Shown: positions 2-39,291, counted from the first letter of the stretch. The stretch: 41,795 nt of DNA from a bacterium (GCA_046331705.1 JAXLQJ010000061.1:1-41795), one strand, 5' to 3'. Notes: generated by a model not told the origin, from the letters alone. Made by a program: numbers and translations.

Positions 2-277
2 TTCCGCTTCGTCCGCGAACATCCGCCCTCGGGAGGCGAAGAGATTGAGCAAGGTCGCGGGTCCGCACAGCGACCCGTTGCGCTGCCAGCGCAGCATCCG
101 GCTGTATTCGCGGGCCACGGGCAGCGACCACGCCCGCTCCAGCAGCGCGGGGTCGCGGATGACGGCGTGAGCGATCGCCTCGGCAGGGACCTTGGGCGGA
201 CCTGAGACCAGGGGTGGGCCGCAGCCGGTCCACAGGGCGACGACCGCCAACACCTTCCACACGGATGGGCATCGCAT
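2..277 (-). CDS. Phytochelatin synthase-like / papain-fold cysteine peptidase, probable lipoprotein (partial, runs off window start)
   Basis: Absent from the ORF track. Manual translation from ATG 277: MRCPSVWKVLAVVALWTGCGPP...LLERAWSLPVAREYSRMLRWQRNGSLCGPATLLNLF. Has the Q-x5-CGPA catalytic motif of PCS/C39-like enzymes and a hydrophobic N-terminus ending LWTGC. Confidence 0.65.
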   Translation of the reverse strand, partial: MRCPSVWKVLAVVALWTGCGPPLVSGPPKVPAEAIAHAVIRDPALLERAWSLPVAREYSRMLRWQRNGSLCGPATLLNLFASRGRMFADEAE

Positions 278-641
278 GGCGCGCACTCTAGCCCTGAAGT
301 GAGGCGAAGCGCCTGGGTCCGGACTCGGTGAGGTTTCTCGGGGAGCTTTCCGAGCCCCCGCGCCGCGAGAGATGCGGCTCTCGCGCGGCCCCACCCGAGC
401 GGGCTCGCGCAGCTCGCCGTCGCGCCGCGGGCGCGTGAAGTCCTCGCGTGCGGATTCTCGTGGGATTCATCGACGCGCTCCGTTCAGGTCCAGCGCGTGC
501 GAGCCGTGAGCCGATTGCCGGATTTCGCCACGGAGCCGACGGAGTGGCGCACGAGCGCAATCGCCACGTTCGGCCGGCAATGCGGCACCCGGTCCGGACC
601 CACCGCGTTGTCGAGCTTGCCAACAGCGTCGGGTGACGGGA

Positions 642-658
642 CGTGGGGAATCACCACA
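642..658. promoter_or_regulatory. Putative upstream activator site 1 for a sigma54 activator
   Basis: CGTGGGGAATCACCACA, an imperfect copy of the palindrome at 746-762. Confidence 0.55.
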
Positions 659-744
659 CCCCCCCCGCGCTCGTCGATTCCGCTCCAAATCTCATGATCT
701 CAGGGCGTTGCGCCGGATCGCGGCGGAGCGCGCCAGCGCGGCGT

Positions 745-763
745 CTGTGGGGATTTCCCACAG
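745..763. promoter_or_regulatory. Putative upstream activator site 2 (palindrome)
   Basis: CTGTGGG-GATTT-CCCACAG, 7-bp perfect arms, about 90-100 bp upstream of the -24 element. A degenerate copy CGTGGG-CAGGC-CCCGAC follows at 768-784. Confidence 0.65.
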
Positions 764-803
764 GCCTCGTGGGCAGGCCCCGACTCGGGGCGCCAGCACC
801 GAT

Positions 804-830
804 CTTTTTATCAGCAATATCGAATACTTA
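804..830 (+). promoter_or_regulatory. Putative IHF binding site
   Basis: TATCGAATACTTA (818-830) matches WATCAANNNNTTR with one mismatch and is preceded by a T-tract. It lies between the UAS and the sigma54 promoter, in an AT-rich island. Confidence 0.6.
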
Positions 831-845
831 AACGGGCAAACTCGA

Positions 846-863
846 TTTGGCGTGCGCCTTGCT
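846..863 (+). promoter_or_regulatory. sigma54 (-24/-12) promoter
   Basis: TTTGGCGTGCGCCTTGCT: GG(849-850)-N10-GC(861-862) in TGGC...TTGC context, about 60 bp before ATG 922. A sigma54 activator is encoded in the same locus. Confidence 0.85.
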
Positions 864-921
864 CATGGCACATCCCCAAGCCGGGCGATGACAGCCCGGC
901 CGTCGACCCGAGGAGGTTGCC

Positions 922-1602
922 ATGACCGTCGCGCTCGTTCTCGCCATCTTCGCCGCGTTCATCACCATCGACGTGATCCGCAACGCGATCGTCTCCCGCA
1001 AGCGGGTTCCCGTCCGCGTTCCCGACGCCGAGCCGGTGCCCGTGCTCGCTCCCCTCGCGCCGATCTGGGTGGCGGGCTACCAGATGCCGGAGGAGCTCCA
1101 CTACCACCGCGGTCATACCTGGGCCCAGGTGCTGCCGAACGGCCGCGCCCGGATCGGGCTCGACGACTTCGCGCGTCAGCTCGTCGGCCGCGCCACCGCC
1201 CTGCGGCTGCCCGAGCCTGGTGAGCGTGTTCGCCAGGGCGCCAACGCCTTCGGCGTGCGGGTCGGGCACCGTGCGGTTTCGTTGGTCGCTCCCCTCGATG
1301 GCCACGTGGTCGCCGTCAACCCAGCGCTCGCCGAGAACCCGGCGCTCGCGTCCGACGAGCCCTACGGCCGCGGCTGGCTGGTCGAGATCGAGCCCGCCGC
1401 CATCAAGCGTGGCCTCAACAACCTGCTCTCGGGCGGGCTCGCCCAGCGCTTCATGGAGCACGCACGCCAGCAGCTCGAGCTCGGTCTGATGGCGCTCTCC
1501 GGATCCGTGCTGCAGGACGGCGGCGTTCCGATCGCCGACTTCGCACGCGAGCTCTCCGACGAGGACTGGCAGCGGCTGACCCACGAGCTCTTGCTGGCCT
1601 GA
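922..1602 (+). CDS. Membrane-anchored glycine-cleavage-H-like protein lacking the lipoyl-lysine
   Basis: H-protein motifs YHRGHTW, RIGLDDFA, LPEPG, APLDGHVVAVN, EPYGRGWL. N-terminal TM helix, AGGAGG RBS. His116 occupies the lipoyl-Lys position. Confidence 0.85.
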   Translation: MTVALVLAIFAAFITIDVIRNAIVSRKRVPVRVPDAEPVPVLAPLAPIWVAGYQMPEELHYHRGHTWAQVLPNGRARIGLDDFARQLVGRATALRLPEPGERVRQGANAFGVRVGHRAVSLVAPLDGHVVAVNPALAENPALASDEPYGRGWLVEIEPAAIKRGLNNLLSGGLAQRFMEHARQQLELGLMALSGSVLQDGGVPIADFARELSDEDWQRLTHELLLA

Positions 1603-1639
1603 CGCACCGTACGGACCTCGACACTTCGGAGCAACGACC

Positions 1640-3604
1640 ATGACCGCCCAACCCCACGGCTTGCTGATCGACACCACGCAATGTGTCGGTTGCGGCTCCT
1701 GCGTGAACGCCTGCCTCGAAGCTCACGGCGCCACCGGCGACGCGAGCGAGATCACCGGACTCTCGGCGAACGCCCGCACCGCGCTCGTCCAACACGAGGA
1801 CGTGTGGCGCCGTCAGCTCTGCATGCACTGCGTGAACCCCTCGTGCGCGAGCGTGTGCCCCGTCGAAGCGCTGCGGAAGACCCCCGAAGGCCCGGTGGTC
1901 TACGACGAGAGCCGCTGCCTCGGCTGCCGCTACTGCATGCAGGCGTGCCCGTTCGGCGTGCCGACCTACCAGTGGCTGAGCGCCAAGCCGGCGGTGGTGA
2001 AGTGCGACTTCTGCGTCGATCGCCAAGCACGCGGCGAGCCCACCGCGTGTGCCGCGGCCTGCCCCGCGGGCGCCACCACGTTCGGCGTCCGGGAGGAGCT
2101 GATCCGCGAGGCGCACGAGCGCATCGACCAGAGCCCGGACGTCTATCAGCCCCACGTCTACGGCGAGCACGAGATCGGCGGCACCTCGGTGCTCTTCCTG
2201 TCGGCGGTCCCGTTCGAGAAGCTCGGGTTCCCGATGGGCCTCGGCGACGAGCCGCTGCCCGATCGCACCCGGCGGGCGCTGGCGCGCATCCCGGGCATCG
2301 TCACCGTGGGCGGCGCGCTGCTGTGGGGCGTGTGGTGGATCACCAATCGTCGCGAGGAGGTGGCGCTGGCGGAGGCCGAGCGTGAACGCGAACGCGCGGC
2401 GGCGCCGCCACCCGAGCCGCGTCGCCGCGGCCGCTTCCAGCTCACCTTCTGGCGCACCTTCTTCGTGCTGCTCGCCATCGCGGGCAGCGTGCTGGTGGGC
2501 ATGCGCTACGGCGCCGGGCTCGGCTCGGTCACGAACCTGAGCGACCGCGTGCCGTGGGGACTCTGGGTGGGGTTCGACGTGCTGTGCGGCGTCGGTCTCG
2601 CCGCCGGCGGATTCACGATCACCGCCATGGTGCACCTCTTCCACGCCAAGCGCTTCGAGCCGATCGTGCGACCGACGGTGCTGACGGCGTTCCTCGGCTA
2701 TCTGCTGGTGGTGGCGGCGTTGCTCCTCGACCTGGGACGGCCGTGGAACCTGTGGCATCCGCTGGTCATGTGGAATCCGCACTCGGTCATGTTCGAGGTG
2801 TCGTGGTGCGTGATGCTCTACACGACCGTGCTCAGCCTCGAGCTCTCGGGCATGGTCTTCGAGAAGCTCGGCTGGAAGCGCGCGCAGCGCTGGCAGCGCA
2901 GCGCCACGGTGCCGCTGGTGGTGACGGGCGTGCTGCTCTCGACGCTGCACCAGTCGTCGCTGGGCGCCGTGTACCTGATCGTCCCCGGCAAGCTGCACCC
3001 GCTCTGGTACAGCCCCAACCTGCCGTGGATCTTCTACGTCTCGTCGATCTGTGTCGGCCTCGCGATGGTGGTGGTCGAGTCGCGGTTCTCGTCGCGCGCC
3101 TTTGGACGCGAGCTCGAGGTGGAGCTGGTGAGCGAGATCGGCCGCATCCTGGTGGCGGTGCTGGCGGTCTACGCGGCGCTGCGCTTCTTCGACCTGACCT
3201 CGCGCGGCGTGCTGGTGCAAGCCTTCACCGGTAGCTACGAAGCGCGCATGTTCTGGGTGGAGATCGCGCTCGGGCTGTTGATCCCGTCGGCCTTGCTCAG
3301 CACGCCCGCCGGGCGCCGCAGCCCGCGCTTGCTCTACGCGGCGTGCTTGTCCGTGGTGCTGGGATTCGTCGCCAACCGGCTCAACGTGAGCATCACGGGG
3401 TTCGAGGGCCACGAGGGACACTACATCCCCGCGTGGTCGGAGATCCTGATCAGCGTGATGCTGGTCGGCGTCGGCTTCGCCGGCTTCGCCGCCGCGGCGC
3501 GCGTGCTGCCGGTGTTCGGCCCGATCGCCCGCGGTGAGCGCGCCGCCTCGGCAGCGGCGGGCGCGCCGCCGGCGCTGCCTCCGGCCGTCGGCGGAATGGT
3601 GTGA
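1640..3604 (+). CDS. Fused 4x[4Fe-4S] ferredoxin (HybA/FdnH/HmcB-like) + NrfD-family membrane subunit (HybB/HmcC-like)
   Basis: Cys motifs CVGCGSCVNAC, CMHCVNPSCASVC, CLGCRYCMQAC, CDFC..PTACAAAC; YGEHEIGGT; one TM helix; then PWGLWVGFD, DLGRPW, SVMFEV, STLHQSSLG, ANRLNV and multiple TM helices. Confidence 0.88.
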   Translation: MTAQPHGLLIDTTQCVGCGSCVNACLEAHGATGDASEITGLSANARTALVQHEDVWRRQLCMHCVNPSCASVCPVEALRKTPEGPVVYDESRCLGCRYCMQACPFGVPTYQWLSAKPAVVKCDFCVDRQARGEPTACAAACPAGATTFGVREELIREAHERIDQSPDVYQPHVYGEHEIGGTSVLFLSAVPFEKLGFPMGLGDEPLPDRTRRALARIPGIVTVGGALLWGVWWITNRREEVALAEAERERERAAAPPPEPRRRGRFQLTFWRTFFVLLAIAGSVLVGMRYGAGLGSVTNLSDRVPWGLWVGFDVLCGVGLAAGGFTITAMVHLFHAKRFEPIVRPTVLTAFLGYLLVVAALLLDLGRPWNLWHPLVMWNPHSVMFEVSWCVMLYTTVLSLELSGMVFEKLGWKRAQRWQRSATVPLVVTGVLLSTLHQSSLGAVYLIVPGKLHPLWYSPNLPWIFYVSSICVGLAMVVVESRFSSRAFGRELEVELVSEIGRILVAVLAVYAALRFFDLTSRGVLVQAFTGSYEARMFWVEIALGLLIPSALLSTPAGRRSPRLLYAACLSVVLGFVANRLNVSITGFEGHEGHYIPAWSEILISVMLVGVGFAGFAAAARVLPVFGPIARGERAASAAAGAPPALPPAVGGMV

Positions 3605-3632
3605 CGACGGCTCGCGTTCTCGCAGCACGCTC

Positions 3633-3670
3633 GGCGCCGGCCCCCCAGAGCTCGGGGAGCCGGCGCCTTC
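3633..3670 (+). terminator. GC-rich hairpin after the HybAB-like gene (possible weak terminator or processing site)
   Basis: GGCGCCGGC...GCCGGCGCC outer arms with a CCCC/GGGG inner stem, followed only by TTC (no strong U-tract). Confidence 0.3.
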
Positions 3671-3771
3671 GCCGCTGCCGCGCGCGGGCCGTCGCGGTCC
3701 CGAAGGCGCTGTCGCGCTCTCGGACCATCTGCTAACTCGTCAACCCGCTCGTCTCGGACATCCTCCCTGTC

Positions 3772-5415
3772 ATGCCTCTCGCCACGCTTCGCGAAGCGCT
3801 CACCCGCCGGCTCGGCTTCCGGTTGGGTCTCTTCCTGGTGCTCGGCAGCGTCGCGATCCTGGGAGTGATCGGGGTGTGGAACGTGGCGCTCCACCGGCGC
3901 CAGCTCACCCATCTGGTCGAGGTGCAGGCCACCCAGCTCGCTGGCGTCGTGCGTCGCTCCACCCACGAGGCGATGCTGCGCAACGACTCCCGCGCCTTGC
4001 GCGGGATGGTGGATGCGCTGGCCAGTGAGAAGGACGTCCAGCGCATCCGGGTGTTCGACAAGCAAGGCCGCATCAGCATCTCGACCGAGCGCACCGAAGA
4101 GGGGCAGCCGGTCGACATGGACGCCGAGCAATGCGTCTCGTGCCACGGCGCGGGACGGCCCCTCGAGCGGCTGACGATCCGCGAGCGCACGCGGATCTTC
4201 GGCCCCGCGGGCCGCCGCGTGCTCGGCGTCATCGCACCCGTCCAGAACGAGCCGGCGTGCTCGAACGCCTCCTGCCACGCCCATCCGCCCGAGAAGACCA
4301 TCCTCGGAGTGCTCGACGTGCAGCTCTCCCTCGACGAGGTCGACGCGAGCGTCGCCGCATCCGAGCGCCAGCTGGTGTTCGCGCTCTCGCTCACCGCGCT
4401 GCTGCTGCTCGGCCTGAGCGGCGTGGTCACGTGGCGCTTGGTGCTCAAGCCCGTCCACCAGCTCACCAGCGCGGCACCGCTGGTCGCGGCCGCGGACTTC
4501 TCGGTGCGCGTTCCTTCGCTGGGCCACGACGAGATCGGCAAGCTCGTCGACGCCTGGAACGCGATGGTCGAGGACCTGGGCGAGACGCATGCGCGCCTCG
4601 CCGACGCGAATCGCACGCTCGAGGAACGGATCGCGGCGAAGACCCAGGCGCTCGAGAAAGCGCATCGCCAGATGGTGCTGGTGGAGAAGATGGCGTCGCT
4701 CGGCAAGCTCGCGGCGGTGGTCGCCCACGAGATCAACAATCCGCTCGCCGGCGTGGTGACCTACGCGCGGCTCCTGCGCCGGCGGCACGGCGAGGACCCC
4801 GTCGCGGCGAGCAAGCTCGCGGGGCCCGACACCGAGCGGATCCTGGAGCTGATCGAGAGCGAGACCGTGCGCTGCGGCAACATCGTGCGCAACCTCCTGC
4901 TCTTCAGCCGCGCGCCGACCGCCCACTTCGCGTCGGCCGACGTCAAGCAGCTGCTCGAGCGTTGCGCGCTTCTGGTCGGACATCGCCTCGAGCTGCAGGA
5001 GCTCACGCTCGAGACGCGGATCGCGCCGGAGCTGCCGGCGATCGTGTGCGATGCGGCGCAATGCCAGCAGGTGATGCTGGCGTTGCTCATGAATGCCATC
5101 GACGCCACGCCACCGGGCGGGCGCATCACGCTCGCCGCGGCCCCGCGGGGAGATGGCGGCGTGCGCCTCGAGGTGGCCGATACCGGCCGCGGGATCCCGC
5201 CCGAGGTGCTGCCGCGGATCTTCGAGCCGTTCTTCACCACCAAGGAAGCGGGCGCGGGAGTGGGCCTCGGCCTGGCGGTGGTGTACGGAATCGTGGAACG
5301 GCACCACGGCCTGATCGACGTGGTCTCGGCGCCCGGCGAAGGAGCTAAGTTCATCGTCGAGCTACCCGCCGATCCGCGCGCGGCGCCCTCTCCCGACCCA
5401 TCCCCGAAGGCGTGA
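3772..5415 (+). CDS. Sensor histidine kinase with periplasmic c-type heme motifs, HAMP, HisKA and HATPase domains
   Basis: Two TM helices flank CVSCH and CSNASCH. HAMP (DEIGKL), H-box AHEINNPL, N-box NAIDA, DTGRG, FEPFFTTK, GVGLGL. Confidence 0.92.
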   Translation: MPLATLREALTRRLGFRLGLFLVLGSVAILGVIGVWNVALHRRQLTHLVEVQATQLAGVVRRSTHEAMLRNDSRALRGMVDALASEKDVQRIRVFDKQGRISISTERTEEGQPVDMDAEQCVSCHGAGRPLERLTIRERTRIFGPAGRRVLGVIAPVQNEPACSNASCHAHPPEKTILGVLDVQLSLDEVDASVAASERQLVFALSLTALLLLGLSGVVTWRLVLKPVHQLTSAAPLVAAADFSVRVPSLGHDEIGKLVDAWNAMVEDLGETHARLADANRTLEERIAAKTQALEKAHRQMVLVEKMASLGKLAAVVAHEINNPLAGVVTYARLLRRRHGEDPVAASKLAGPDTERILELIESETVRCGNIVRNLLLFSRAPTAHFASADVKQLLERCALLVGHRLELQELTLETRIAPELPAIVCDAAQCQQVMLALLMNAIDATPPGGRITLAAAPRGDGGVRLEVADTGRGIPPEVLPRIFEPFFTTKEAGAGVGLGLAVVYGIVERHHGLIDVVSAPGEGAKFIVELPADPRAAPSPDPSPKA

Positions 5416-5420
5416 GAGCC

Positions 5421-6800
5421 ATGAGCGAGACCGACCGACGCCGTCCCCCTTCGATCCTGATCGTCGACGACGAGACCATCGTCCGGCAGTCGCTCGCGGA
5501 CTGGTTCCGCCAGGACGGTTACGACGTGCAGACCGCGCAGAACGGCAAGGAAGCGCTGCGGCTGCTCGCGGATCGCCCCGCCGACATCGCGTTCGTCGAC
5601 ATCAAGATGCCCGGGATGGATGGCCTCACGTTGCAGGGCCGCCTGGCGGAGGCACAGCCGGATCTCACGGTCATCGTGATGACGGCGTACGCGTCCGTGG
5701 AATCGGCGGTGACCGCGCTCAAGGCGGGGGCGTACGACTACATCACCAAGCCGTTCGATCCCGAGGAGCTCTCGCTCCTGGTGCGGCGCGCTGCCGAGCA
5801 CCGCTCGCTGCGCACCGAGAACCAGCGCTTGAAGGAGCAGCTCGAGGCGGTGGTGTCGCCGGCGCCGATCGTGAGCCGCTCGGCGGCGATGGCGCGGGTG
5901 AAGGAGATGATCGCGGCGGTGGCCGAGTCGGACGCCACCGTGCTGGTGCGCGGCGAGTCGGGAACGGGCAAGGAGCTGATCGCGCGGGCGATCCATGCGC
6001 GCTCGGCGCGCCGCTACGGGCCGCTGGTGGTCGTGAACTGCGGCGCGCTCGCCGAAGGGGTGCTCGAGAGCGAGCTCTTCGGTCACGAGAAGGGGGCGTT
6101 CACGGGCGCGCAGCACCGTCACAAGGGCAAGTTCGAGCTCGCCGACGGCGGCACGATCTTCCTGGACGAGATCGGCACGGTCTCGCCGCGGATGCAGGTC
6201 GAGCTGCTGCGCGTCCTCGAGGAGAAGACGGTGACCCGCGTGGGTGGCCAGCAGCCGGTCGCGCTCGACTTCCGGGTGATCGCCGCGACCAATCAGGACC
6301 TCGACGCGATGGTGAAGGCCGGCCAGCTCCGCGAGGACCTCTACTGGCGATTGCACGTGTTCGTGATCGAGATCCCGCGGCTCGCCGAGCGACGCGAGGA
6401 CGTGGTGCCGCTCGCCGAGCATTTCGTGGATCACTACGCGCGCGCCATGAACCGCGGGCCGGTGAAGCTCTCGGCGGCGGCGCGCGAGGCGCTCGAGAGC
6501 TACGACTGGCCGGGAAACGTGCGCGAGCTGCAAAACGCCATCGAGCGCGCGCTGGTGCTCGGCGGCTCGCCCGAGATCCAGATCGAGGCGCTGCCGCTGC
6601 GCGTGCTCGGCACCCGCACCGAGGGCGAGCACCGCTCGCTCGCCGAGGTGGAGAAGGAGCACATCCTGCGGGTGCTCGCGGAATGCGACTGGAACATCTC
6701 TCGTTCGGCACGCGTTCTCGAGATCGATCGCGGCACGCTCTACGACAAGATCAACCGCTACGAGCTCAAGGCTCCCAGCGCGTCGGGTCGGGGCGGCTGA
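5421..6800 (+). CDS. sigma54-dependent response regulator (NtrC/AtoC/ZraR family)
   Basis: REC domain (IVDDE, DIKMPGMDG, KPF), GESGTGKE, GAFTGA, FLDEI, WPGNVRELQN, C-terminal Fis-type HTH. Start ATG 5421 or GTG 5412. Confidence 0.95.
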   Translation: MSETDRRRPPSILIVDDETIVRQSLADWFRQDGYDVQTAQNGKEALRLLADRPADIAFVDIKMPGMDGLTLQGRLAEAQPDLTVIVMTAYASVESAVTALKAGAYDYITKPFDPEELSLLVRRAAEHRSLRTENQRLKEQLEAVVSPAPIVSRSAAMARVKEMIAAVAESDATVLVRGESGTGKELIARAIHARSARRYGPLVVVNCGALAEGVLESELFGHEKGAFTGAQHRHKGKFELADGGTIFLDEIGTVSPRMQVELLRVLEEKTVTRVGGQQPVALDFRVIAATNQDLDAMVKAGQLREDLYWRLHVFVIEIPRLAERREDVVPLAEHFVDHYARAMNRGPVKLSAAAREALESYDWPGNVRELQNAIERALVLGGSPEIQIEALPLRVLGTRTEGEHRSLAEVEKEHILRVLAECDWNISRSARVLEIDRGTLYDKINRYELKAPSASGRGG

Positions 6801-6837
6801 GCCGGCGCGTCCCGCGCCGACGGCGAGACGCGCGCTC

Positions 6838-7440
6838 GTGGACCGCGTCGAGCCAGCATCTCCGCAGCACGAGTCGGCCACGGCCATTCAGCGCGTGAGC
6901 CTGGTTCCGGTCGCGCTACCGATCGAGACCGCGCAACGACTCGCTTCGCTCCTCAGCCGCCGGGTCGCCGTCCCGTGCGAGGTGAGCCCTCGTGCCGAGG
7001 TCGAGCCACCGCCCCGGCTGGGGACGCGGGCCCAGCACGACGCCGACGCGTTGCTGCGCGGGCTGGGCGCGCTCGCCATCCCGGCGCGGACGGTGGTGGT
7101 GGGCGTCACGGCGCTCGATCTCGCGATCCCGGTGTTCACCCACGTGTTCGGGCGCGCCATGCTGGGCGGACCAGCGGCGCTGATCTCGCTCGCGCGGCTC
7201 GGCCCCGAGTTCTACGGCGCGCCGCCCGATCCCACGCTCACCCTCGAACGCGGCGTCACCGAGATCCTCCACGAGCTCGGTCACGTCGCGGGGCTCGACC
7301 ATTGCGCCGACCGAGGCTGCATCATGAGCTTCGTGCCGAACGTCGAAAGCCTGGACCTGCGCGGTCGCGGCTTCTGCGTGCGCTGCGCCGAGCGCACCGC
7401 GGCGCGCGTCCCCCTCGCCCACGCGCCGGGCGCGCCGTGA
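6838..7440 (+). CDS. Archaemetzincin-family Zn metalloprotease (M54)
   Basis: HELGHVAGLDHC..GCIMSF..FCVRC: metzincin HExxHxxGxxH, Met-turn and Cys4 zinc site. Confidence 0.88.
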   Translation: MDRVEPASPQHESATAIQRVSLVPVALPIETAQRLASLLSRRVAVPCEVSPRAEVEPPPRLGTRAQHDADALLRGLGALAIPARTVVVGVTALDLAIPVFTHVFGRAMLGGPAALISLARLGPEFYGAPPDPTLTLERGVTEILHELGHVAGLDHCADRGCIMSFVPNVESLDLRGRGFCVRCAERTAARVPLAHAPGAP

Positions 7441-7494
7441 CCGCCTGTCCCACGCACGGTCGTACGGCCGCGCGCATGGCATCCTGAGCTCCCC

Positions 7495-7866
7495 GTGACC
7501 GCCGCCCCATCGCCCTTGCCGCCCCGTCGCGACCGCGAGTACCGCACCATCGCGGCGCTCATCGAGCGCTTCTGCCGCGATCATCACGCGCCCGCCGCAT
7601 CGCTCTGCGACGAGTGCGCGACCCTCACGAGCTACGCACGCAAGCGACTCGAACGCTGCCCGTACGGCGACGAGAAGCCGACCTGCGTCCACTGCCCGAT
7701 CCACTGCTACCAGCCCCGGATTCGCGAGCAGATCCGCGACGTGATGCGCTACGCGGGGCCACGGCTGCTGATCCAGCATCCGATCCTCGCGGTGCGGCAC
7801 TGGCTCGACGAGCGCAAACCCTTGCCCGAGCGTCCCCGGCGCGCGGGGACCCCCGAGCGCTCCTGA
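7495..7866 (+). CDS. ygbA: YgbA-family (nitrous-oxide/NO-stimulated promoter family) Cys-rich protein
   Basis: RE..TI....FCRDHH, LCDEC..L..YA..RL..CPYG..KPTC..CPIHCY, MRYAGPR....HP..A..H pattern. Confidence 0.88.
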   Translation: MTAAPSPLPPRRDREYRTIAALIERFCRDHHAPAASLCDECATLTSYARKRLERCPYGDEKPTCVHCPIHCYQPRIREQIRDVMRYAGPRLLIQHPILAVRHWLDERKPLPERPRRAGTPERS

Positions 7867-7957
7867 CGCATCGCGTGCAGCGGCGGAAGCGGACGCGGCA
7901 AGAGTGCCGCGTCCGATCCTCGCCTCGACCCAGCGCTCGCGGCGCGCTCGGCGCCGG

Positions 7958-8527
7958 CTATCTCACCGGCGCCATCAGATGCTGATACGGAGTCCCGGCC
8001 CACATCACGTACGGCACGCTCGTGTCCGGATCGGCGCTCTTGGGATAGCCGTCGTAGAAGGAGGGATCGGCGCCGACGATCATCACGTGCGGCCCGGTCT
8101 TGATCCAATGATTGGATTCCGTCGGCTGGGTCGCGTAGGGATCGGTATTGCTGGCGTCGGTGCCGCCCGCGAGCATGTACATGAAGCCGACCTTGCCGGC
8201 TGGCGGTGGCTGATGGCTCATCCACGCGTGGACCCACTCGCTCGAGTTGGCGTCGAAGCACATCGGGTCGGGTCCGGGGGTCGCGGGGCTGTCCGGCATG
8301 CAGGTGAAGCCGTTGGTCCCGGGCTTCAGGGTGCGCATCGTGCCGTCGGCCTCCATGGAAACGATGGTGGCGTTCTTGGCGACGTTCGCCGGCGCGGCGG
8401 CCATGGCACTCGCGATGAGCTGCTTGTCGGTGGGCTTCGCCGCCGCCTTCTCGGCGGCCGAGCTCGGCGCCGCCGCCAGGACGGTCACCGCGGCGATGAG
8501 GGAGATCAGGGCGTGCTTCGTCTGCAT
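7958..8527 (-). CDS. Hypothetical secreted protein, Met/His-rich, two Cys
   Basis: AGGAGG RBS before ATG 8527. Sec signal MQTKHALISLIAAVTVLAAAPSSA; protein-like composition (GTNGFTCMPD, DPMCFD, GPHVM). Confidence 0.8.
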   Translation of the reverse strand: MQTKHALISLIAAVTVLAAAPSSAAEKAAAKPTDKQLIASAMAAAPANVAKNATIVSMEADGTMRTLKPGTNGFTCMPDSPATPGPDPMCFDANSSEWVHAWMSHQPPPAGKVGFMYMLAGGTDASNTDPYATQPTESNHWIKTGPHVMIVGADPSFYDGYPKSADPDTSVPYVMWAGTPYQHLMAPVR

Positions 8528-8734
8528 CGAGCTCCTCCTTCCGCCCGCTTGGGGCGCTTGGGGATGGGATCGTTCAGAACAGCGCTGCGCCTGCCCGCAC
8601 GGTAGCCAAGCCGCCGCCTGCGGCCGAGAACGACGCCAGCGACGAATGGCCACGCCCCCGGATACCCGCGGCCCGAGCCGAGCCGCGCACCCGGCGCGGG
8701 GACAGCCGCTCGCCGTCGCGGCCGCGGCCGAGGC

Positions 8735-10252: not shown

Positions 10253-11124
10253 ATGAAGCGCAGCGGCGGGTTCTCGCGAGCGAGGATCCCCTGCAAACGC
10301 TCGCGCACCCGCTCGTCGGTCTGCTCGCTCTCGGGAAGGATCCAGAAGCGATCCCGGCGGATGCCGTCGATGGCGAGCTCTGCGACCTCGGCGGGCTCGG
10401 TCACCGCGAACTCGAGGCCCGCCGACTCGATCATGCCGCGGATGTCTTCCAGCGTGGGCGGCGGCGAGTCCGCCGGCTTCTCGTCCGGGAAGTCGGCGGG
10501 ACGATTGCGGTAGGCCGTGAAGATGTTGGTGCGCACCAGGTGCGGCCCGGGGAACAGCACTCCCGCCTTCACGGGCGCCCCGGACATCGAGAGCTGCGCG
10601 TGCAGCACCTCGGCCACACACGTGACCGCGGCCTTGGCCGCCGCGTAGATCGGCGTGGTGGGCAGCGGAAAGAGACCGCCGTTGCCCGACGAGGTACAGA
10701 TCACGTGCGCCTCTTCGTCGCGTTGCAGCAGGATCGGCACGAACGCCTTGATGCCGTTGAGCACGCCGAAGAGGTTGACGTCGAGCACCCAGCGCCAATC
10801 GGTCTCGGGAGAATCCCAGATCATCGAGCGTGTCTCGTCGGTCCCGACGCCCGCGTTCAGGAAGACCAGCTGGACGCCGCCGTAGGTCTCGAGCGTCTTG
10901 GCGGCGAGCGCCTTCACGGCGTCGAGCTTGCGCACGTCGGTGACCACACCGATCACCTCGTGACCGCGGGCGCGCATCTCGCTCACCGACGCATCGAGCG
11001 CCTTCGGCTCGACGTCGGCGAGCACGATCTTGACGTGCTCGCGCGCCAAGCGATCGGCGATGGCGCGGCCGATGCCGCTCGCTCCACCGGTGATGACCGC
11101 GACCTTGCCGGCAAAGTCCTTCAT
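10249..11124 (-). CDS. Short-chain dehydrogenase/reductase
   Basis: TGGASGIG, NAG, catalytic Ser (TSS) and YAAAK. ATGA overlap with the upstream gene. Confidence 0.93.
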   Translation of the reverse strand: MKDFAGKVAVITGGASGIGRAIADRLAREHVKIVLADVEPKALDASVSEMRARGHEVIGVVTDVRKLDAVKALAAKTLETYGGVQLVFLNAGVGTDETRSMIWDSPETDWRWVLDVNLFGVLNGIKAFVPILLQRDEEAHVICTSSGNGGLFPLPTTPIYAAAKAAVTCVAEVLHAQLSMSGAPVKAGVLFPGPHLVRTNIFTAYRNRPADFPDEKPADSPPPTLEDIRGMIESAGLEFAVTEPAEVAELAIDGIRRDRFWILPESEQTDERVRERLQGILARENPPLRFM

Positions 11125-11939
11125 GCCGCCTGCTCCGACGCGAGCGCGACCTCGAGACCGGGGAACATCGGATCGTCGTAGCGCTGGTGGATGAAGGGCG
11201 CCAGCCACTCTCCCGGCACCGAGCGCAGCACGGCGCCGCTCGATTCGACGTCGCTCACCTCGAGCTCGAGCGTCACGAGCTTGCGCACCGGCAGGTCCGC
11301 CACCGGATCGAAGGGCGAATCCGACAGCAGCACCTCGCCGTCCAGGACCTCCGTGCTCGCCATCACCAGCTTCCATTCGAGACGGCAGAGCAACGGATCA
11401 CCGTCGAAACCTTGCGCCGGCGGCGGCGCCGGGAGCGCCTTGAAGGTGTAGGCGCGATCGACGCGATTCGCCGGCTTGCCACGACGCACGGCGCGTCCGC
11501 GCAGCTCGAGGTACGGGATGCCCATGCGGCTGATGCGGCCCACGTGGAACCCGTGCTCCTCGCCGAGCGTGATCTCGGCGAGCTTCTTGGGCTCGCCGTA
11601 GATCTCGCGTCCGCCCACGACGGCGGCCTCCGTGGTCATGGGCATGGTGAGCGGGTAGAGGCCCTCGACGCCCTCGTAGCTGCACGTCACGCCGAAGGTC
11701 CCGGCGCCGAGCGGAAACGTCATGTCGCCCGGCAGATGGATGGTCACGTCGCTCACGATCGCGTGGACCTCGGGCCGTGCAGCGGGCGCGAGCGGGCGCG
11801 GCAGCACCGCCGCGATCAGCTCGGGGTCGGTCTCGTAGATGGCGCGGATCGAGCGCACCTCGCTGCGGAGGTAGCCGGGTCCCGCCGCGCGCGCCTCGGC
11901 GAGCTGCTGGGCGGATTTCGCGTAACGCAGTCGTGCCAT
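11121..11939 (-). CDS. Acetoacetate decarboxylase-like superfamily protein
   Basis: YETDP, LPRPL, GREIYGEPKK (Schiff-base Lys motif), DPVADLPV. AGGAG RBS. Confidence 0.88.
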   Translation of the reverse strand: MARLRYAKSAQQLAEARAAGPGYLRSEVRSIRAIYETDPELIAAVLPRPLAPAARPEVHAIVSDVTIHLPGDMTFPLGAGTFGVTCSYEGVEGLYPLTMPMTTEAAVVGGREIYGEPKKLAEITLGEEHGFHVGRISRMGIPYLELRGRAVRRGKPANRVDRAYTFKALPAPPPAQGFDGDPLLCRLEWKLVMASTEVLDGEVLLSDSPFDPVADLPVRKLVTLELEVSDVESSGAVLRSVPGEWLAPFIHQRYDDPMFPGLEVALASEQAA

Positions 11940-20108: not shown

Positions 20109-23100
20109 TTACGCGCGACGGCGACGCCGTGCGCGGAACCCGAAGACGAAGAGCGACGCGGGGATCAGCCACAGGCCCAGATCGATCGGCACCTCGAAGC
20201 CGCGCTCCGCGTCACCCGCCACGGCCGCCTCCGCATCCTGCGGCGTGGGGTTGCAGCCCGTCTGCGGCGGAGTGTTGGGATTGCAGTCGTTGTCGACGCC
20301 ATCCCGCGGGACCTCCGTCGCACCCGGATTCACCGCCGCGTTGGCGTCGTCGCAGTCGGTGGCGGATCCAGCCGGGCAAGCCGCGTTGCCCGGATTGCCG
20401 TAACCGTCGCCGTCACCGTCCACGCACGCCGACGCGCAGCTCGGGTCCGCGGAGTCCGCGAGCCCGTCACAATCGTCGTCGATGCCATTCGAGCAATTCT
20501 CGGTGGCGCCCGGGTTCACGGCGGCGTTGCCGTCGTTGCAGTCGAGCTGCGGGAAGCTGCACACCGGCGACGCGGGGTTGCCGTAGCCGTCGCCGTCGCC
20601 ATCCGAGCACACCGGCGTGCTGCTGCACACGTAGGTCTGGCCGGTGAGGTAGAGCGTCCACGAGTTGAGCGTGCCGGTATCCGCACCGGCGGTGTCCTGA
20701 ACCGTCAGCTTCCAGTTACCCGCCGTCGCTCCACCGACGAAATCGGCGAGGGCGCCTGGGCCGTCCGGTGCCGCCGTGTCCGGATAGGTCGCGACGATGT
20801 TGTCGGCGCTGCCGCCCGAGTTGTTGGCCAGGGTGACCACGGTGCCGCTCGGCGACTCGAGCTTCACCACCAGATCCCCTCGGTAGGTGTGGGTGATGTT
20901 GACCGCCACCCGCACGTTCGTGACGTTGCCGGTGTTGGGCACCGAACGGGTGGACGTGATGCCGGCCGCAGGGCTGTCGGGGATCGCGATGGGCGTATCC
21001 GTGGACGCGTAGGCGTTCTCGCTGCCGGCGACCGAGGCGCCCACGACCTGTGTGAAGGAGTCGTTGAAGGTTCCCTGGCCGGTGGCGATGGCGAGATCGA
21101 AGTCGATGGTGGTGCCGCACGCGACACCCGAGCTGACCGAGTAGCTGTAGTGCGGCGCGAGCGAGGTGGCCTGCGAGTTCGCAGGCACGTTGGGGAAGCT
21201 CGCGACGTTGTCGGTGATCGTGATGCCCGGGGTGGCGGTGCTGAGCGTCGCGCTCACGCCGGTGGACGGCTGCGAGTTGCTCGCGAGGGTGACCGACGAC
21301 TGGATGGACTCGCCGGGCTCGACGACGCCGTCGCCGTCGCCGGCCGAGTCGTCCACCGCGCTCGACTCGTAACGGAGCTCGGGACCCGAAGCCGGGGTGG
21401 TCGTCGCGCAGTTCGACGCCGACCCGAAGCAAGCCGCGGCAGAGCCCTTCGGCACGACGATGTACGAGTACGGCTCGCCGTTTTGCAGGCCGGTGTCGTG
21501 GAACGAGGTGCTGGTGGTGGAAGCGACCTTGATCTTGCCGAACTCGCACGCGAACACGCCGTCGGTGCGGTACACCTCGTACGAGCTGGCGCCGGCGATC
21601 GCGTTCCAGCTCAGGTCGGCAACCATGTTGCCGCCGTTGGCGTTGAGCGCGGGGGCGGCCACCGGCGTGCCGCTGCAGCCGGAGGTCGCGACGACCGGCG
21701 TGCCGCACGCGATCTGGTGACGGTTGAACGCGGCGTAGATCGCCGCCATGTGCGGGGTGCCGTCGTTCAGGTTGCCGTTGTCGTCGTCGGCCGCGAGGTA
21801 CTGCTGGTAGCCGCTGGTCGCCGCGCAACCACCGTTGGGTGCTCCGCCCGAGTAGCCAGCGCCCATGTTGCCGCCGCCGATGAAGAGCAACCGGGTCGCG
21901 ACCGTGTGGGCGGTCTGCTCGTCGAGGCTGTACGGCGCCGACTTGAGGTCGCGCTTCCACAGGTCCCAAACCGATTCCGAGTACGGATGGCCGGTGCAGT
22001 GCACCGCGCCGCTGCAGTTCGCGTTCGCCCACGTGTACGTGTGCGGCTGACCCGAGGCGTGCTTCGCGTAGTCGATGTCGCGAACGCCCGTGCAGGCGGT
22101 GCAAGCATCCCCGAAGCCGCTGCAATTGCTGGCCGTGAAGTTGCGCCCGATGCACGACGTGTTGAGACGGAACGCCGCGTAGAGATCGGCGACACCCTCC
22201 TGGGTGATGGCGACGATCGAGGGGTTTGCATCGTTGTCGTCCAGACCATGCCCCCACTCGTGATCGAACACCGCCGCGATCTCACCGGTGTTCGCGCAAC
22301 CGCCGCCCGACCGGTAGAAGTTCACGGTCGAGCCGTTCCAGAAGGCATTGCAGGTCTGGTTGATGTTCATGTTGGCGGTGAGCTGCTGCTGCAACCAGGT
22401 GTTGCTCGGAAGCTGGCCGCGCGCCATCTGTTTGATGCGGTTGAGCTCGTAGAAGCCGCTGCGCGATGCGTGGGTGTTGCCGGCGCCGCCCACGCCTGGC
22501 GTGGTGCAGTCCGTGCCGCTCGAGGCGCCAAAATTCAGGTTGGTCGCCGAGCTGAGCGAGCTGGCGCCGCAGCCGTCGCTCATGTTCACGTATTGCCCGG
22601 TCAGGCTGGCGCTGATGTTGCCGTCGACTGGCGCGATGTTCCCGCCCGCGTCCGACGTCACGTTCCCACCGGTGGTGGTCACGGTGGCAAACGGCATGGC
22701 CCAGCCGCTCTGCTCGACGCCATCCGGAGCGACGCCATCGTTCGTGACGGGATAGACGCCGCCCTTGACCTCACGCTCGGTCGCGTAGTCGTTGGTGTCC
22801 TCGAACGACAGCAGCTCGCCGCTCAGGGCATCCACGAGAGCCTCGAACCGGCCATCGCTGCCCGCGAAACGCGGCCGGACCACCCACGCGAGGCGGTAGC
22901 CGTAGCCCTTGCCCACGTCACCGGCCGCTTGCGCCTTCGCGGTGGCCACGAGGTTGAGCTCGCTCTTCCCCCACACCGTCGCGCTGGCGAACGGCCGGCC
23001 GTGGTCACGCGCCGTGGCGAGCGCCGCGTCCGCGGTGATCGTCGGCGTCGTGGAGACGTCGATGTCGCCCCACTGGGCCAGGCCGAGGAGCGTGAGGTTG

Positions 23101-23696
23101 CCGTGATTGATCACGGCGCTCAGGTACTCGCCTCGAACCGCCACACCCTTCACGACGCGCGGCAGGTAGACGTGGATGATCGAGCCGCGCTCGTGGCTCG
23201 TCACCCGCGCCGAGACCGCCGTCTCCGCCAGATCGAGGCGCAGCGCCTTGGCGTTGCGTTGCAGGTAGGAGCCGAACGCCTCGCCGGCCGCGGACTCGAG
23301 CGCGGAGTCGGTGGTGGGCGCGGCCTCGCCGATCCCTTGCCAGCTCAGGTTGTTGCCCACGCCCGAACCGGGAATGAGTGGCTGCGAAGGCGTGATGGTC
23401 GCCCAGCGGCCGCTGCGGACGTCGATCCGGCCACGGTCGTTGGCGACGCCGAGCGCCGAGAGGTCGTTCGCCGCGCGGGTCGCAGCATCGCCCGACAGCT
23501 CGGCGGGAAGCTTGTAACTCGTCTCGATGTCGAGAGCCGCGTTGCGGAACTCCTTGCCATGCAGCCCGGATGCTTGCGGCTCATCGAAGGCCCGAACCGG
23601 GCTGGCTGCCGCCAGCGCGAGCGTGCACACGATCGCCAGCGTCGCTGCGGGCGATCGGGTGAACCGGCCAAAGTGCGAACGGTTTCGTCTCAACAC
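20109..23696 (-). CDS. Large secreted Zn metalloprotease (M4/M36 gluzincin-like) with propeptide, P-domain, MopE-like repeats and C-terminal membrane anchor
   Basis: AAGGAG RBS then GTG 23696; signal peptide ending SPVRA. CNAFWNG, DHEWGH, EGVAD, P-domain ITHTYRGDL...GTLNSW, two DGDGDGYG..DCxD..PGA.E..DGxDxDC repeats, terminal TM + RRRRR. Confidence 0.88.
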   Translation of the reverse strand: MLRRNRSHFGRFTRSPAATLAIVCTLALAAASPVRAFDEPQASGLHGKEFRNAALDIETSYKLPAELSGDAATRAANDLSALGVANDRGRIDVRSGRWATITPSQPLIPGSGVGNNLSWQGIGEAAPTTDSALESAAGEAFGSYLQRNAKALRLDLAETAVSARVTSHERGSIIHVYLPRVVKGVAVRGEYLSAVINHGNLTLLGLAQWGDIDVSTTPTITADAALATARDHGRPFASATVWGKSELNLVATAKAQAAGDVGKGYGYRLAWVVRPRFAGSDGRFEALVDALSGELLSFEDTNDYATEREVKGGVYPVTNDGVAPDGVEQSGWAMPFATVTTTGGNVTSDAGGNIAPVDGNISASLTGQYVNMSDGCGASSLSSATNLNFGASSGTDCTTPGVGGAGNTHASRSGFYELNRIKQMARGQLPSNTWLQQQLTANMNINQTCNAFWNGSTVNFYRSGGGCANTGEIAAVFDHEWGHGLDDNDANPSIVAITQEGVADLYAAFRLNTSCIGRNFTASNCSGFGDACTACTGVRDIDYAKHASGQPHTYTWANANCSGAVHCTGHPYSESVWDLWKRDLKSAPYSLDEQTAHTVATRLLFIGGGNMGAGYSGGAPNGGCAATSGYQQYLAADDDNGNLNDGTPHMAAIYAAFNRHQIACGTPVVATSGCSGTPVAAPALNANGGNMVADLSWNAIAGASSYEVYRTDGVFACEFGKIKVASTTSTSFHDTGLQNGEPYSYIVVPKGSAAACFGSASNCATTTPASGPELRYESSAVDDSAGDGDGVVEPGESIQSSVTLASNSQPSTGVSATLSTATPGITITDNVASFPNVPANSQATSLAPHYSYSVSSGVACGTTIDFDLAIATGQGTFNDSFTQVVGASVAGSENAYASTDTPIAIPDSPAAGITSTRSVPNTGNVTNVRVAVNITHTYRGDLVVKLESPSGTVVTLANNSGGSADNIVATYPDTAAPDGPGALADFVGGATAGNWKLTVQDTAGADTGTLNSWTLYLTGQTYVCSSTPVCSDGDGDGYGNPASPVCSFPQLDCNDGNAAVNPGATENCSNGIDDDCDGLADSADPSCASACVDGDGDGYGNPGNAACPAGSATDCDDANAAVNPGATEVPRDGVDNDCNPNTPPQTGCNPTPQDAEAAVAGDAERGFEVPIDLGLWLIPASLFVFGFRARRRRRA
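20278..20610 (-). repeat. Two intragenic MopE-related (putative metal-binding) Cys/Asp repeats
   Basis: CSDGDGDGYGNP..DCNDGNAAVNPGATENCSNGIDDDCD and CVDGDGDGYGNP..DCDDANAAVNPGATEVPRDGVDNDCN. Confidence 0.8.
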
Positions 23697-23913
23697 GATG
23701 CTGCTCCTTTGTCGCCCCGCAGCCATCGACGCTGCGGGCAGTGTGCGGACCGGTGCGCCTCGGATGGCTCGGGTCCGGTGATCCTCGAAATGCGCGAAGT
23801 CGGTTTTGGAGCGGAAGTCGAGATTACGCCTCCGACACCGCTGGACGCAACGCGGGAGCCGCATTTTCTCCCTGCGGTGGATCGAGGCGAGACGGGAGCT
23901 GCCGCGCGAGGCG

Positions 23914-31387: not shown

Positions 31388-31439
31388 AATCATACATCGT
31401 AGTATGATTAGATCGAATCATACATTAATGTATGATTCG
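31388..31439. promoter_or_regulatory. Tandem TetR operators
   Basis: AATCATAC-ATCGTA-GTATGATT (31388-31409) and the perfect 26-bp CGAATCATACATT|AATGTATGATTCG (31414-31439), 28-bp period. Confidence 0.9.
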
Positions 31440-31461
31440 GCACGTCGAGAGGAGGCCACCG

Positions 31462-32310
31462 ATGAGCACCGCCGATGACCGTCTCGCAGCCGCGTCCGCC
31501 CCGCGTGAGACCACCTCCGCGGACTCGCTGGCGGATCGCCTGCCGGCGCTCGGCGCCGATTGGTCGCTCGCGCGGACGCGCGAGCTGCTGCGTCAGCGCC
31601 GCTGGACCTGGGCTCGCGCCGAGATCCTGATCGCGGAGGTCGCGGTGGACCGCGTCGTGTCGCGCGCGTGGCTACCGCCTGCGCTCGCGCTGCCGGCGGC
31701 GCCTGCGCGCGCCACCGTGTTCGTCGCCCACTACCCCGACACCGCGATGGGCTTCGCGTACCGGGAGGCGGGCGTGCTGTTGCACGCGACGCTGCGGCGC
31801 AAGCCGGTGCTGCATTGCGCGTGGATGGTCGTCGACGACGACACCGCGCTGATCCTCGGCCGCGAGCTGCTCGGCTTTCCCAAGAAGCTGGCCTGGATCG
31901 AGCTCGAGACCCGCGAACGGCGCCCGCGCGGCGCCGTCGAGCGGCGCGGCGCGCGGGTGCTCGCGATGGACGCGCTCTGCGCACCGGCGACGGCGGCGCC
32001 GCGCGCGGCGTTCCCGTTCCCGATCGTCAACCTCCGCGGCATCCCCGGCGTGCTGCCGCAGTGGCTGATCGCGATGCGACCCAACGAGCGTTGTCACGGG
32101 TGCGAGGCGGTCACGTTCCGCATCACCAGCGAGGCGAGCGCTTGCGACCCGCTCGCGACCCTCGGTCTCGCCGGTGACCACGCCGGCCACCGGCTGATCG
32201 TCGACCTCGGGCACCCGGACGCTCCCGGCGCCTCGCGCGTGCCCGCGGTGCCGACGTCGTGGCTCGGACCCACTTGGCTCTGGAAGGCCTACCCGTTCCG
32301 CGCTTGGTGA
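31462..32310 (+). CDS. Acetoacetate decarboxylase-like superfamily protein
   Basis: WLPPAL, YPDT..GFAYREAG, MVVDDD.ALILGRELLGFPKK, DPL. AGGAGG RBS. Confidence 0.85.
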   Translation: MSTADDRLAAASAPRETTSADSLADRLPALGADWSLARTRELLRQRRWTWARAEILIAEVAVDRVVSRAWLPPALALPAAPARATVFVAHYPDTAMGFAYREAGVLLHATLRRKPVLHCAWMVVDDDTALILGRELLGFPKKLAWIELETRERRPRGAVERRGARVLAMDALCAPATAAPRAAFPFPIVNLRGIPGVLPQWLIAMRPNERCHGCEAVTFRITSEASACDPLATLGLAGDHAGHRLIVDLGHPDAPGASRVPAVPTSWLGPTWLWKAYPFRAW

Positions 32311-38961: not shown

Positions 38962-39287
38962 CCCAGCCTCACGCGATAGCCGATCGCCTGACGCAACAGC
39001 TCGACCACGAACGCCTCGGGCCCACTGGTGGCGGGGCGAAAGCTCGGTCCCGGGAATGGCACGACCAAAGGCAGCGAGCGGCGGGCGATCTCGCGCGCGG
39101 CCGCGGGATCGAGCGCCGCGTAGACCTCGTCCTCGACCAGCACCACGCCGAGGGTGGGATCGGCGAGCATGTCGCTCAGCACCCGCGCGCCGGCCGCCGC
39201 GTCCTCGACCTCGCACGTGGCGAGGCCGGCGAGCGCGAACCCGGCGCTCACCGCTGGACGGCCGACGACCACGACCCCCTTCGCCAT
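38958..39287 (-). CDS. ntpF: V/A-type ATP synthase subunit F
   Basis: GFALAG, RQAIG; size and position in the operon. Confidence 0.9.
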   Translation of the reverse strand: MAKGVVVVGRPAVSAGFALAGLATCEVEDAAAGARVLSDMLADPTLGVVLVEDEVYAALDPAAAREIARRSLPLVVPFPGPSFRPATSGPEAFVVELLRQAIGYRVRLG

Positions 39288-39291
39288 CGCC

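Follow-up and report, generated by a model that had tools for sequence, protein, structure and literature searches.

A stretch of bacterial DNA, 41,795 nucleotides long (GCA_046331705.1 JAXLQJ010000061.1:1-41795, hereafter the window), carries six genes on the plus strand at 922-7866 that form one copy of a conserved cassette. The first gene (922-1602) encodes a GcvH-like protein of 226 residues (GcvHL; GCV_H, 77.6 bits). It is followed by a single frame (1640-3604) for a HybA-HybB fusion of 654 residues, with matches to HmcB/HybA and HmcC/HybB. After an intergenic gap of 167 nt (3605-3771), which holds a G+C-rich hairpin, come the genes for a two-component system. The sensor histidine kinase (3772-5415) consists of a first transmembrane (TM) helix, a two-haem periplasmic domain, a second TM helix, HAMP, HisKA and HATPase; the NtrC-type response regulator (5412-6800), whose start overlaps the kinase stop by 4 nt, consists of REC, a sigma-54 AAA+ domain with GAFTGA and a Fis-type helix-turn-helix (HTH_8). 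An archaemetzincin (Peptidase_M54; 6838-7440), with an HExxHxxGxxHC motif and a Cys4 site, and a Cys-rich protein of the YgbA family (7495-7866; YgbA_NO, 142.2 bits) complete the set. In this window of 71% G+C, all six frames showed a coding signature, with G+C of 0.89-0.93 at third and 0.44-0.55 at second codon positions. A sigma-54 -24/-12 promoter, TGGCGTGCGCCTTGCT, lies upstream on the plus strand at 848-863, with GG and GC in place and 10 of 12 consensus positions matched. The six co-oriented genes behind a sigma-54 promoter that a first-pass annotation of this DNA had described were thus all found in their plus-strand places.

Relatives of GcvHL numbered 749 at E <= 0.001 in a clustered protein collection, most of them 217-240 residues long and 50-58% identical, and were annotated at source merely as glycine cleavage H protein. 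A scan of one genome per species gave 245 relatives, and we examined the best 79 of these 245 loci. They belonged to Acidobacteriota (including Vicinamibacteria and Thermoanaerobaculia), Planctomycetota, Krumholzibacteriia, Latescibacterota, Gemmatimonadota, Rokubacteria and several deltaproteobacterial groups. Forty of the 79 had the order GcvHL>HybA>HybB>kinase>regulator>M54, and many others had the same order cut at a contig end; kinase>regulator>M54>GcvHL without HybAB was found in 9, and GcvHL>kinase>regulator>M54 in 3. For gene counts, we used the 47 loci with at least 6.2 kb of downstream and at least 5.5 kb of upstream sequence. Kinase, regulator and archaemetzincin were each present in all 47, HybA and HybB each in 38, and YgbA in 2. 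The neighbourhood check proposed by the first-pass annotation thus found these partners together across phyla; its inclusion of HybA/HybB and YgbA in the cassette was right for the window, but HybAB was absent from 9 of the 47 loci and YgbA was confined to the window's genus. All-against-all clustering of frames of at least 100 residues returned no further cluster in more than 12 of the 79 loci, and the widely shared clusters were the cassette families, apart from one large antisense cluster.

These loci had been picked via GcvHL. For the reverse test, 301 genomes were drawn evenly from Acidobacteriota, since the window's own phylum offered just six, and the resulting tables were compared by eye. 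M54 was present in 100 genomes and the GcvHL type (profile E <= 1e-35) in 37, all 37 of which also had M54. In 24 of these 37, the two genes sat no more than 8 kb from each other on one contig; in 11 they were on separate contigs, and in 2 (G224 and G284) a long distance lay between them. The phylum of the window is represented by six species-level genomes of one family and two genera. All five genomes of one genus carry the cassette, and neither M54 nor the GcvHL type was found in the sole genome of the other, which is 100% complete. The cassette copy of M54 was the only one in the source genome, and likewise in all five further genomes checked, which came from five groups. Together with its presence at 47 of 47 loci, this places the zinc protease in the core rather than among the accessories, where it had been put before. 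Judged by gene content, kinase, regulator, protease and GcvH-like protein are the invariant core of the cassette, and the quinone module is a frequent add-on.

The promoter TGGCGTGCGCCTTGCT was the sole plus-strand sigma-54 site of such quality across the window, and rpoN is encoded in the source genome. The locus and genome therefore supply each part of an NtrC-type system: a regulator with REC, sigma-54 AAA+ and helix-turn-helix domains, a HisKA/HATPase kinase, a -24/-12 promoter and rpoN. An inverted-repeat search of 560-925 returned none, and candidate activator sites emerged only by phylogenetic footprinting. In an alignment of four genomes of the genus, the upstream region was divergent except for the -24/-12 element, the ribosome-binding site and two 16-bp palindromes, neither of which is assigned to a strand. 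Site 1 is the imperfect palindrome GTGGGGAATCACCACA (643-658), and site 2 the palindrome GTGGGGATTTCCCACA (747-762), nearly invariant in the four genomes. Their centres are about 104 bp apart, that of site 2 being about 95 bp upstream of the promoter GG.

From the eight sites of these four genomes we derived a degenerate pattern, with which the 8.17-Mb genome (95.7% complete) was searched at up to one mismatch. The pattern matched sites 1 and 2 and one place on contig C18; the reversed-pattern control also gave one match. The C18 match was rejected as a third activator site and attributed to chance, as it is intragenic in a long frame and has no sigma-54 site within 2.5 kb. By this site-pattern criterion, the predicted regulon of the activator is the cassette operon alone. 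It follows that the operon itself must encode the physiological output, and because the motif has no other functional copy in the genome, "self-contained", as this sigma-54-driven locus had been called, is a fair description.

Upstream of the GcvH-like gene, a strict TGGC-N7-TTGC was found in 24 of the 79 related loci (chance expectation, 0.008 per 320 nt), and a sigma-54 motif with GG/GC and at least 9 of 12 positions in 50 of 79 (chance expectation, 0.095 per 400 nt). The motif precedes this gene even where the kinase, regulator and protease genes lie upstream of it. Because this holds even in rearranged deltaproteobacterial loci, the GcvH-like gene appears to be the one constant target of the sigma-54 promoter.

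We also looked for other signals in 400-8700. A sigma-70 scan found 0 promoters, and a terminator scan one terminator-like site, inside the first gene and below chance; both scans are uninformative at such high G+C. The long hairpin of the gap at 3605-3771 had a minimum free energy of -90.4 kcal/mol (z = -3.36), none of 200 shuffled sequences being equally stable, and a T tract is absent. By attenuation or processing of the transcript, it may uncouple the structural and regulatory halves of the operon. Near-identical DNA turned up in sequencing runs from 12 studies, taken from activated sludge, wastewater and digesters. One metatranscriptome contained four short contigs with 0-1 differences, at 1556-1733, 2242-2392, 2373-2523 and 4064-4228, the first of which spans the GcvH-like stop and the fusion start; as DNA carry-over is possible, these contigs give a weak hint that the locus is transcribed.

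GcvHL consists of a TM helix (about residues 2-20), a variable linker, a lipoate-free H-protein fold (about 55-157) and a conserved helical tail of 69 residues. The fold was assigned by the Pfam GCV_H score, far above the cut-off of 22.2, and by a structure model (a mean pLDDT, the predicted local distance difference test, of 66; above 80 in the domain) whose top Foldseek match was the E. coli H-protein (E 1.7e-8). The scores for curated GcvH equivalogs were missed (TIGR00527, 78.0 against 115.85; NF002270, 84.8 against 117). The lipoyl-lysine of the E. coli ESVKAAS motif aligned with His116, and the protein has no Lys at 113-119 and no cysteine at all. The description of this protein as non-lipoylatable and, given its hydrophobic N-terminal helix, membrane-anchored therefore agrees with our prediction. 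Among 80 family members, position 116 was Gly in 56, and position 117 was Arg in 42 and Lys in 18.

Beyond the H-protein core, His62, Asp81 and Asp-Gly-Gly (DGG) at 199-201 within the tail were invariant in the 80 members, and the tail was always present behind the H-protein domain. A tail profile matched 864 cluster representatives at E <= 0.001; those inspected were full-length members, fragments or fusions. We rejected the tail as a free-standing module, since most short matches were gene fragments of the same family. The idea of DGG as a ubiquitin-like end exposed by the protease gained no support: a conserved stretch of 25 residues follows DGG in all 80 members and in the fragments inspected, and none ends there. 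A search for longer proteins containing the GcvHL sequence returned one weak match, P0121, with no Pfam domain.

In deltaproteobacterial members, Cys-rich modules replace the membrane helix of GcvHL. Two proteins join the fold to cytochromes: P0215 (413 residues) has a signal sequence, a cytochrome c3-like domain with four CxxCH, and then a single TM helix that leads into a GcvH-like domain complete with DGG tail, and in P0223 the GcvH-like tail is followed by a c7-type trihaem cytochrome. Most deltaproteobacterial variants (L077, L079, L080, L082-L084, L088 and L091), as well as L017, have a gene for a GltD-like Fe-S flavoprotein downstream of the GcvH-like gene, and a methylenetetrahydrofolate reductase gene also follows in 6 loci. 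These neighbours point to cytoplasmic redox metabolism.

The second product matches HmcB/HybA at residues 6-251 and HmcC/HybB at 273-626. It begins with a signal-less domain for four [4Fe-4S] clusters (1-215), followed by a tail-anchor helix (about 218-241), an Arg-rich linker and a ten-helix NrfD/HybB part (about 269-626; 10 hydrophobic segments; Pfam NrfD, 85 bits). All 16 Cys of the four cluster motifs were kept in 62-63 of 63 homologues, and many polar residues of HybB were conserved too. NCBIfam scores were below the cut-offs for HybA/HybB (195.8 against 263 and 291.5 against 450), and also for HmcB/HmcC, the best matches (244.8 against 420 and 314.3 against 550). The fusion is likewise unbroken in independently assembled sequence (run X1, record 2, 234-4853) and recurs in three related genomes (L013-L015). 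Its HybA part has no twin-arginine translocation (Tat) signal; the frame starts 5 residues before the first strand and is not extendable. Likewise, 59 of 62 HybA homologues, the window's included, leave no room for a Tat or Sec signal, many having a stop 1-20 codons upstream. Three variant loci have a Tat-like leader on HybA and otherwise the same parts.

Just a single hydrophobic helix, at about 218-241, stands between the Fe-S domain and the first helix of HybB. Averaged over the window and 59 homologues (60 sequences), each HybB loop on the N-terminal side carried 2.1-3.1 Lys and Arg, and each on the other side 0.6-1.5. A passage in PMC8076601 places the termini of ten-helix NrfD proteins on the N-side, with which this charge bias agrees. 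A conserved RR(E/D)EV stands right after the HybA tail helix, in keeping with the Arg-rich linker of the fusion, and GcvHL starts directly with its helix, after which Arg/Lys residues follow. In P0215, the order of cytochrome, TM helix and GcvH-like domain sets this last domain opposite a module that is necessarily periplasmic. As these four indicators (loop charge, RR(E/D)EV, the flank of the GcvHL helix and P0215) agree, we predict that the Fe-S domain is outside and that the fusion linker and the GcvH-like domain are on the cytoplasmic face.

A complex of the fusion and GcvHL was predicted from alignments of 45 and 24 rows. The pair scored 0.73 (runs of 0.68, 0.75 and 0.73), and the best of three controls 0.00. 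Of 157 solved complexes 116 attained this mark, as did 2 of 215 mismatched pairs, counts that hold roughly here, as the alignments were our own. The runs shared at least 64% of contacts, with a partner pLDDT of at least 75. The confident interface joined GcvHL 1-20 to residues 270, 307-312, 537-544 and 570-606 of the fusion, in HybB helices, and we predict from this model that the N-terminal helix of GcvHL packs on HybB. In the model, the GcvHL N-terminus adjoins the Lys/Arg-poor loop 594-606 and residues 14-20 adjoin the Lys/Arg-rich ends at 270 and 570; the modelled orientation of the helix thus agrees with the charge-based topology. The first-pass annotation had set GcvHL in the place of a catalytic partner. 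The prediction speaks against this, as the interface is that of its TM helix on HybB and the soluble domain would be opposite the Fe-S domain.

The sensor domain of the kinase passes the Pfam haem-c model PF21563 (Mcp40H-20; 29.8 bits, cut-off 27), with haem motifs CxxCH at 121-125 and Cx4CH at 163-169. An alignment-based count found both motifs in 51 of 64 homologous kinases; the second (Cx4CH or CxxCH) is present in 52 of 65 sequences, window included. Two-haem kinases accompany HybAB in 47 of 51 loci, and haem-less kinases stand without HybAB in 8 of 13, a group that is mostly one clade and in which several exceptions are truncated genes.

The archaemetzincin carries HExxHxxGxxHC at 145-161 and the CxxC of the second metal site at 180-183. 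It scored 70.6 with Pfam Peptidase_M54 (cut-off 24.4) and 119.7 with the NCBIfam subfamily, under the cut-off of 145. Among 59 homologous proteases, HExxH...H/C was kept in 57-59 and HExxH in 58. Because it has no signal and has a Cys4 zinc site, we infer that it is cytoplasmic. We know of no physiological substrate of an archaemetzincin, from archaea to humans. A passage in the literature on these enzymes suggests a need for activating factors or a stringent specificity. YgbA scored 142.2 with PF11756 (cut-off 25) and 126.4 with NF007714 (cut-off 88). It is the only copy in the genome, and both loci with the gene are of the window's genus; YgbA is thus a genus-specific local addition.

We give about an even chance to the reading that the cassette is an autoregulated device that responds to redox state, with the GcvH-like protein and its membrane module as the product under control. 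The membrane kinase, with a two-haem periplasmic domain that may sense redox state or a ligand there, would phosphorylate the NtrC-type activator, which would then bind the two palindromic sites and fire the sigma-54 promoter. The first and universally regulated product of this promoter would be the lipoate-free GcvH-fold protein, anchored via its N-terminal helix to the HybB (NrfD-type) half of the fusion. The predicted complex would expose four [4Fe-4S] clusters outside, have a quinone-interacting core in the membrane, and turn the GcvH-like domain and its tail towards the cytoplasm. Such a module may join the quinone pool with redox carriers of the periplasm, perhaps the haems of the kinase itself, which would provide feedback, and the cofactor-less GcvH-like domain may serve as a cytoplasmic adaptor or regulatory handle.

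A wider proposal, which we put forward tentatively and regard as possible though on the unlikely side, is that kinase, activator, archaemetzincin and GcvHL with its DGG tail make up a new four-part signalling or effector system. The H-fold would then be a cofactor-less adaptor on interchangeable redox inputs (HybAB, a multihaem cytochrome or an 8-Cys domain), relaying their state across or along the membrane, with the archaemetzincin as its dedicated processing enzyme. If this is true, the M54 family would gain its first physiological substrate.

Several points weigh against the autoregulated device. We infer the function of the cassette from protein families and context, and that the archaemetzincin probably acts on the GcvH-like domain rests on their co-occurrence. 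The related loci are kin, so that counts among them overstate independence and describe rather than test. The 9 of 47 loci without HybAB show that the core function does not depend on the quinone module, and given the Lys one residue past the lipoyl position in 18 of 80 members, some of the family may be lipoylated. As for the complex prediction that had been suggested as a check, the contact of helix and HybB scored well, but the TM helix alone was confidently placed, the soluble GcvH-like domain was not, and the three controls are not known to be membrane proteins, which limits specificity for HybB over other membrane proteins. HybA has no signal, yet the topology puts its Fe-S domain outside, by an export route that is unexplained; there could be an unseen Tat-signalled partner, or the topology could be wrong. 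Finally, a [NiFe] hydrogenase set lies directly upstream of the cassette, co-oriented and 2-8 kb away, in 8 of the 79 loci.

The last two points lead to an alternative in which the cassette is an ordinary respiratory module, inducible and with its partner gene at another place in the genome. Its membrane arm would be HybAB, a Tat- or Sec-signalled partner would carry HybA out, and GcvHL and the protease would be assembly or maturation factors, as HybD/HycI are. Signal-less Fe-S subunits of the superfamily normally ride on a Tat-signalled partner (DmsAB, QrcBC), and a HybA that has no signal though its Fe-S domain is placed outside would suit such a partner, as would the conservation of the 16 cluster Cys and of polar HybB residues. 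The genome also has six NrfD genes, five besides that of the cassette, and two hydrogenase loci. One is a complete Hyd-2-type operon (contig C8:3000-13000, L092) of hypA, hypB, small subunit, HybA, HybB and large subunit; the second, on contig C3, is a divergent match to a hydrogenase large subunit. The C8 HybA opens with the twin-arginine signal SRRSVLK, and the window HybA aligns from just behind it; identity of the cassette module to this hydrogenase-linked pair is 45% for HybA and 36% for HybB. As the C8 operon encodes its own Tat-signalled HybA with HybB adjacent, the Hyd-2-type hydrogenase has its own membrane arm, and the cassette HybAB is a signal-less paralogue. Nor did the surroundings reveal a partner: family scans of the window found no hydrogenase, molybdoenzyme or multihaem cytochrome genes, and no conserved partner gene was found within 9 kb among the 79 loci, in line with the absence of a catalytic subunit reported earlier. 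The 8 loci with a [NiFe] set (L018, L037, L041, L045, L048, L052, L065 and L074) belong to one acidobacterial clade, so a catalytic subunit, which the first-pass annotation had considered might be regular in homologous clusters, is found in some but not regularly. This set comprises an Fe-S subunit, a NAD-binding Fe-S subunit, small and large subunits and a HycI protease; by this composition, we take it to be of the cytoplasmic NAD(P)-linked group 3 type, which does not use HybAB and would have no need of it. The upstream hydrogenase is a lead towards hydrogen or cytoplasmic redox metabolism, not a regular partner. Since, in addition, the activator-site motif marks no other promoter in the genome and 9 of 47 loci have the core but no HybAB, we regard a partner elsewhere as rather doubtful.

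Two further explanations were weighed against the autoregulated device. The Fe-S domain might be cytoplasmic, with GcvHL as its direct redox or docking partner replacing the catalytic subunit, which is the earlier picture of the locus. This would fit a HybA with no export signal, and also the deltaproteobacterial GcvHL fused to a cytoplasmic Cys-rich module, so that the fold often stands beside a metal or redox module. However, with one helix between the Fe-S domain and HybB, every charge indicator sets GcvHL and the Fe-S domain on opposite faces; variants with a Tat-signalled HybA retain the same parts, and the window GcvHL, having neither Cys nor lipoyl-lysine, has no evident redox group. 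We therefore consider this picture very unlikely. A response to nitrosative or oxidative stress is also unlikely, if a little less so; here NO or O2 would be the ligand of the haem sensor, and the operon would serve to protect or repair Fe-S or haem proteins of the periplasm and membrane. The YgbA family is associated with NO stress and its gene is appended in the genus, the sensor domain is of the Geobacter haem-c sensor family, and the organism occurs in the activated-sludge and wastewater runs of 12 studies. Against this, the appended gene is restricted to just 2 of 47 loci, and the conserved core holds no known detoxifying or repair enzyme.

We compared the cassette with known systems. HybA/HybB of Hyd-2, in E. 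coli and in the C8 operon, resembles the cassette module in its families, in a 16-Cys subunit with a C-terminal tail anchor and in a ten-helix HybB. Unlike it, the cassette has no Tat signal and no hydrogenase genes alongside, its two parts are fused in the genus, and a GcvH-like subunit is added. In the Hmc and Nhc complexes of sulfate reducers, HmcB/HmcC are likewise an Fe-S and NrfD pair, one that serves periplasmic cytochromes rather than a catalytic site; the cassette differs in having neither the HmcA/NhcA cytochrome nor HmcDEF, and in being regulated by its own two-component system. The cassette module would thus work like the Fe-S/NrfD core of Hyd-2, Hmc and Nhc, while departing from them in signal, partner genes and curated scores.

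In PspF-pspA and ZraSR-zraP of E. coli, an NtrC-family activator has a near single-operon regulon, whose first product is envelope-associated and may feed back. The cassette shares this single-operon sigma-54 logic, but its products are unrelated and include a protease and a quinone module, and feedback would be hypothetical. GcvH-L of the SirTM/macrodomain operon is lipoylated and soluble. Found in Staphylococcus/Streptococcus (PDB 5a35; rank 22 among the structural matches), it is also an H-protein paralogue outside glycine cleavage and linked to redox stress; the cassette GcvHL differs in having no lysine at the site, a membrane anchor and the 69-residue tail. The haem-c domains of Geobacter chemoreceptors (PF21563) share the CxxCH domain, but here it is on a kinase and has a second motif. 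An M54 relative in gene regulation is also on record: a passage in PMC3427221 describes CarG of Myxococcus xanthus as an archaemetzincin-like transcription cofactor. Whereas CarG has Gln for the catalytic Glu, the window protease keeps HExxH, and its NCBIfam match to CarG is weak (61.7, cut-off 250).

The combination of these families appears to be undescribed, as the first-pass annotation had supposed. Within full-text coverage, which leaves subscription journals outside, we found no paper joining archaemetzincin with sigma-54, or GcvH with NtrC and 4Fe-4S; by title or abstract, and with the same coverage, none of the archaemetzincin literature was on such a cassette, and of the papers listed that named at least two of the cassette families none was relevant. 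To our knowledge, non-lipoylated H-protein paralogues have no known role, and "orphan" NrfC/NrfD modules no known catalytic partner. The cassette gives both, together with archaemetzincin, a joint and testable context. It is common, with the protease in about one third of the sampled Acidobacteriota and the GcvHL type in at least 12%, and its hosts are bacteria of soil, sediment and wastewater from at least seven phylum-level groups. The cassette may thus be a widespread means by which the redox state of the periplasm or the quinone pool controls genes. The natural HybA-HybB fusion fixes relative topology and exposes the puzzle of a signal-less four-cluster Fe-S domain outside the membrane. 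This fusion, the contrast with a Tat-signalled paralogue in the same genome, the unique activator sites and the unbiased co-occurrence counts are the particular yield of this window.

The remaining genes of the window encode enzymes unrelated to the cassette and a V/A-type ATPase, whose genes (catalytic A and E subunits) lie near the window end on the minus strand (37168-40949). A protein of 1320 residues, encoded on the minus strand at 20109-24071, has a proprotein-convertase P-domain and MopE-type metal-binding motifs. There are two genes of the acetoacetate-decarboxylase family, at 11121-11939 on the minus and 31432-32310 on the plus strand, and the window also has a Rieske/KshA-like oxygenase, a P450, a carboxylesterase, and AraC and TetR regulators. 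The surroundings of the acetoacetate-decarboxylase genes look like a catabolic neighbourhood unrelated to the cassette.

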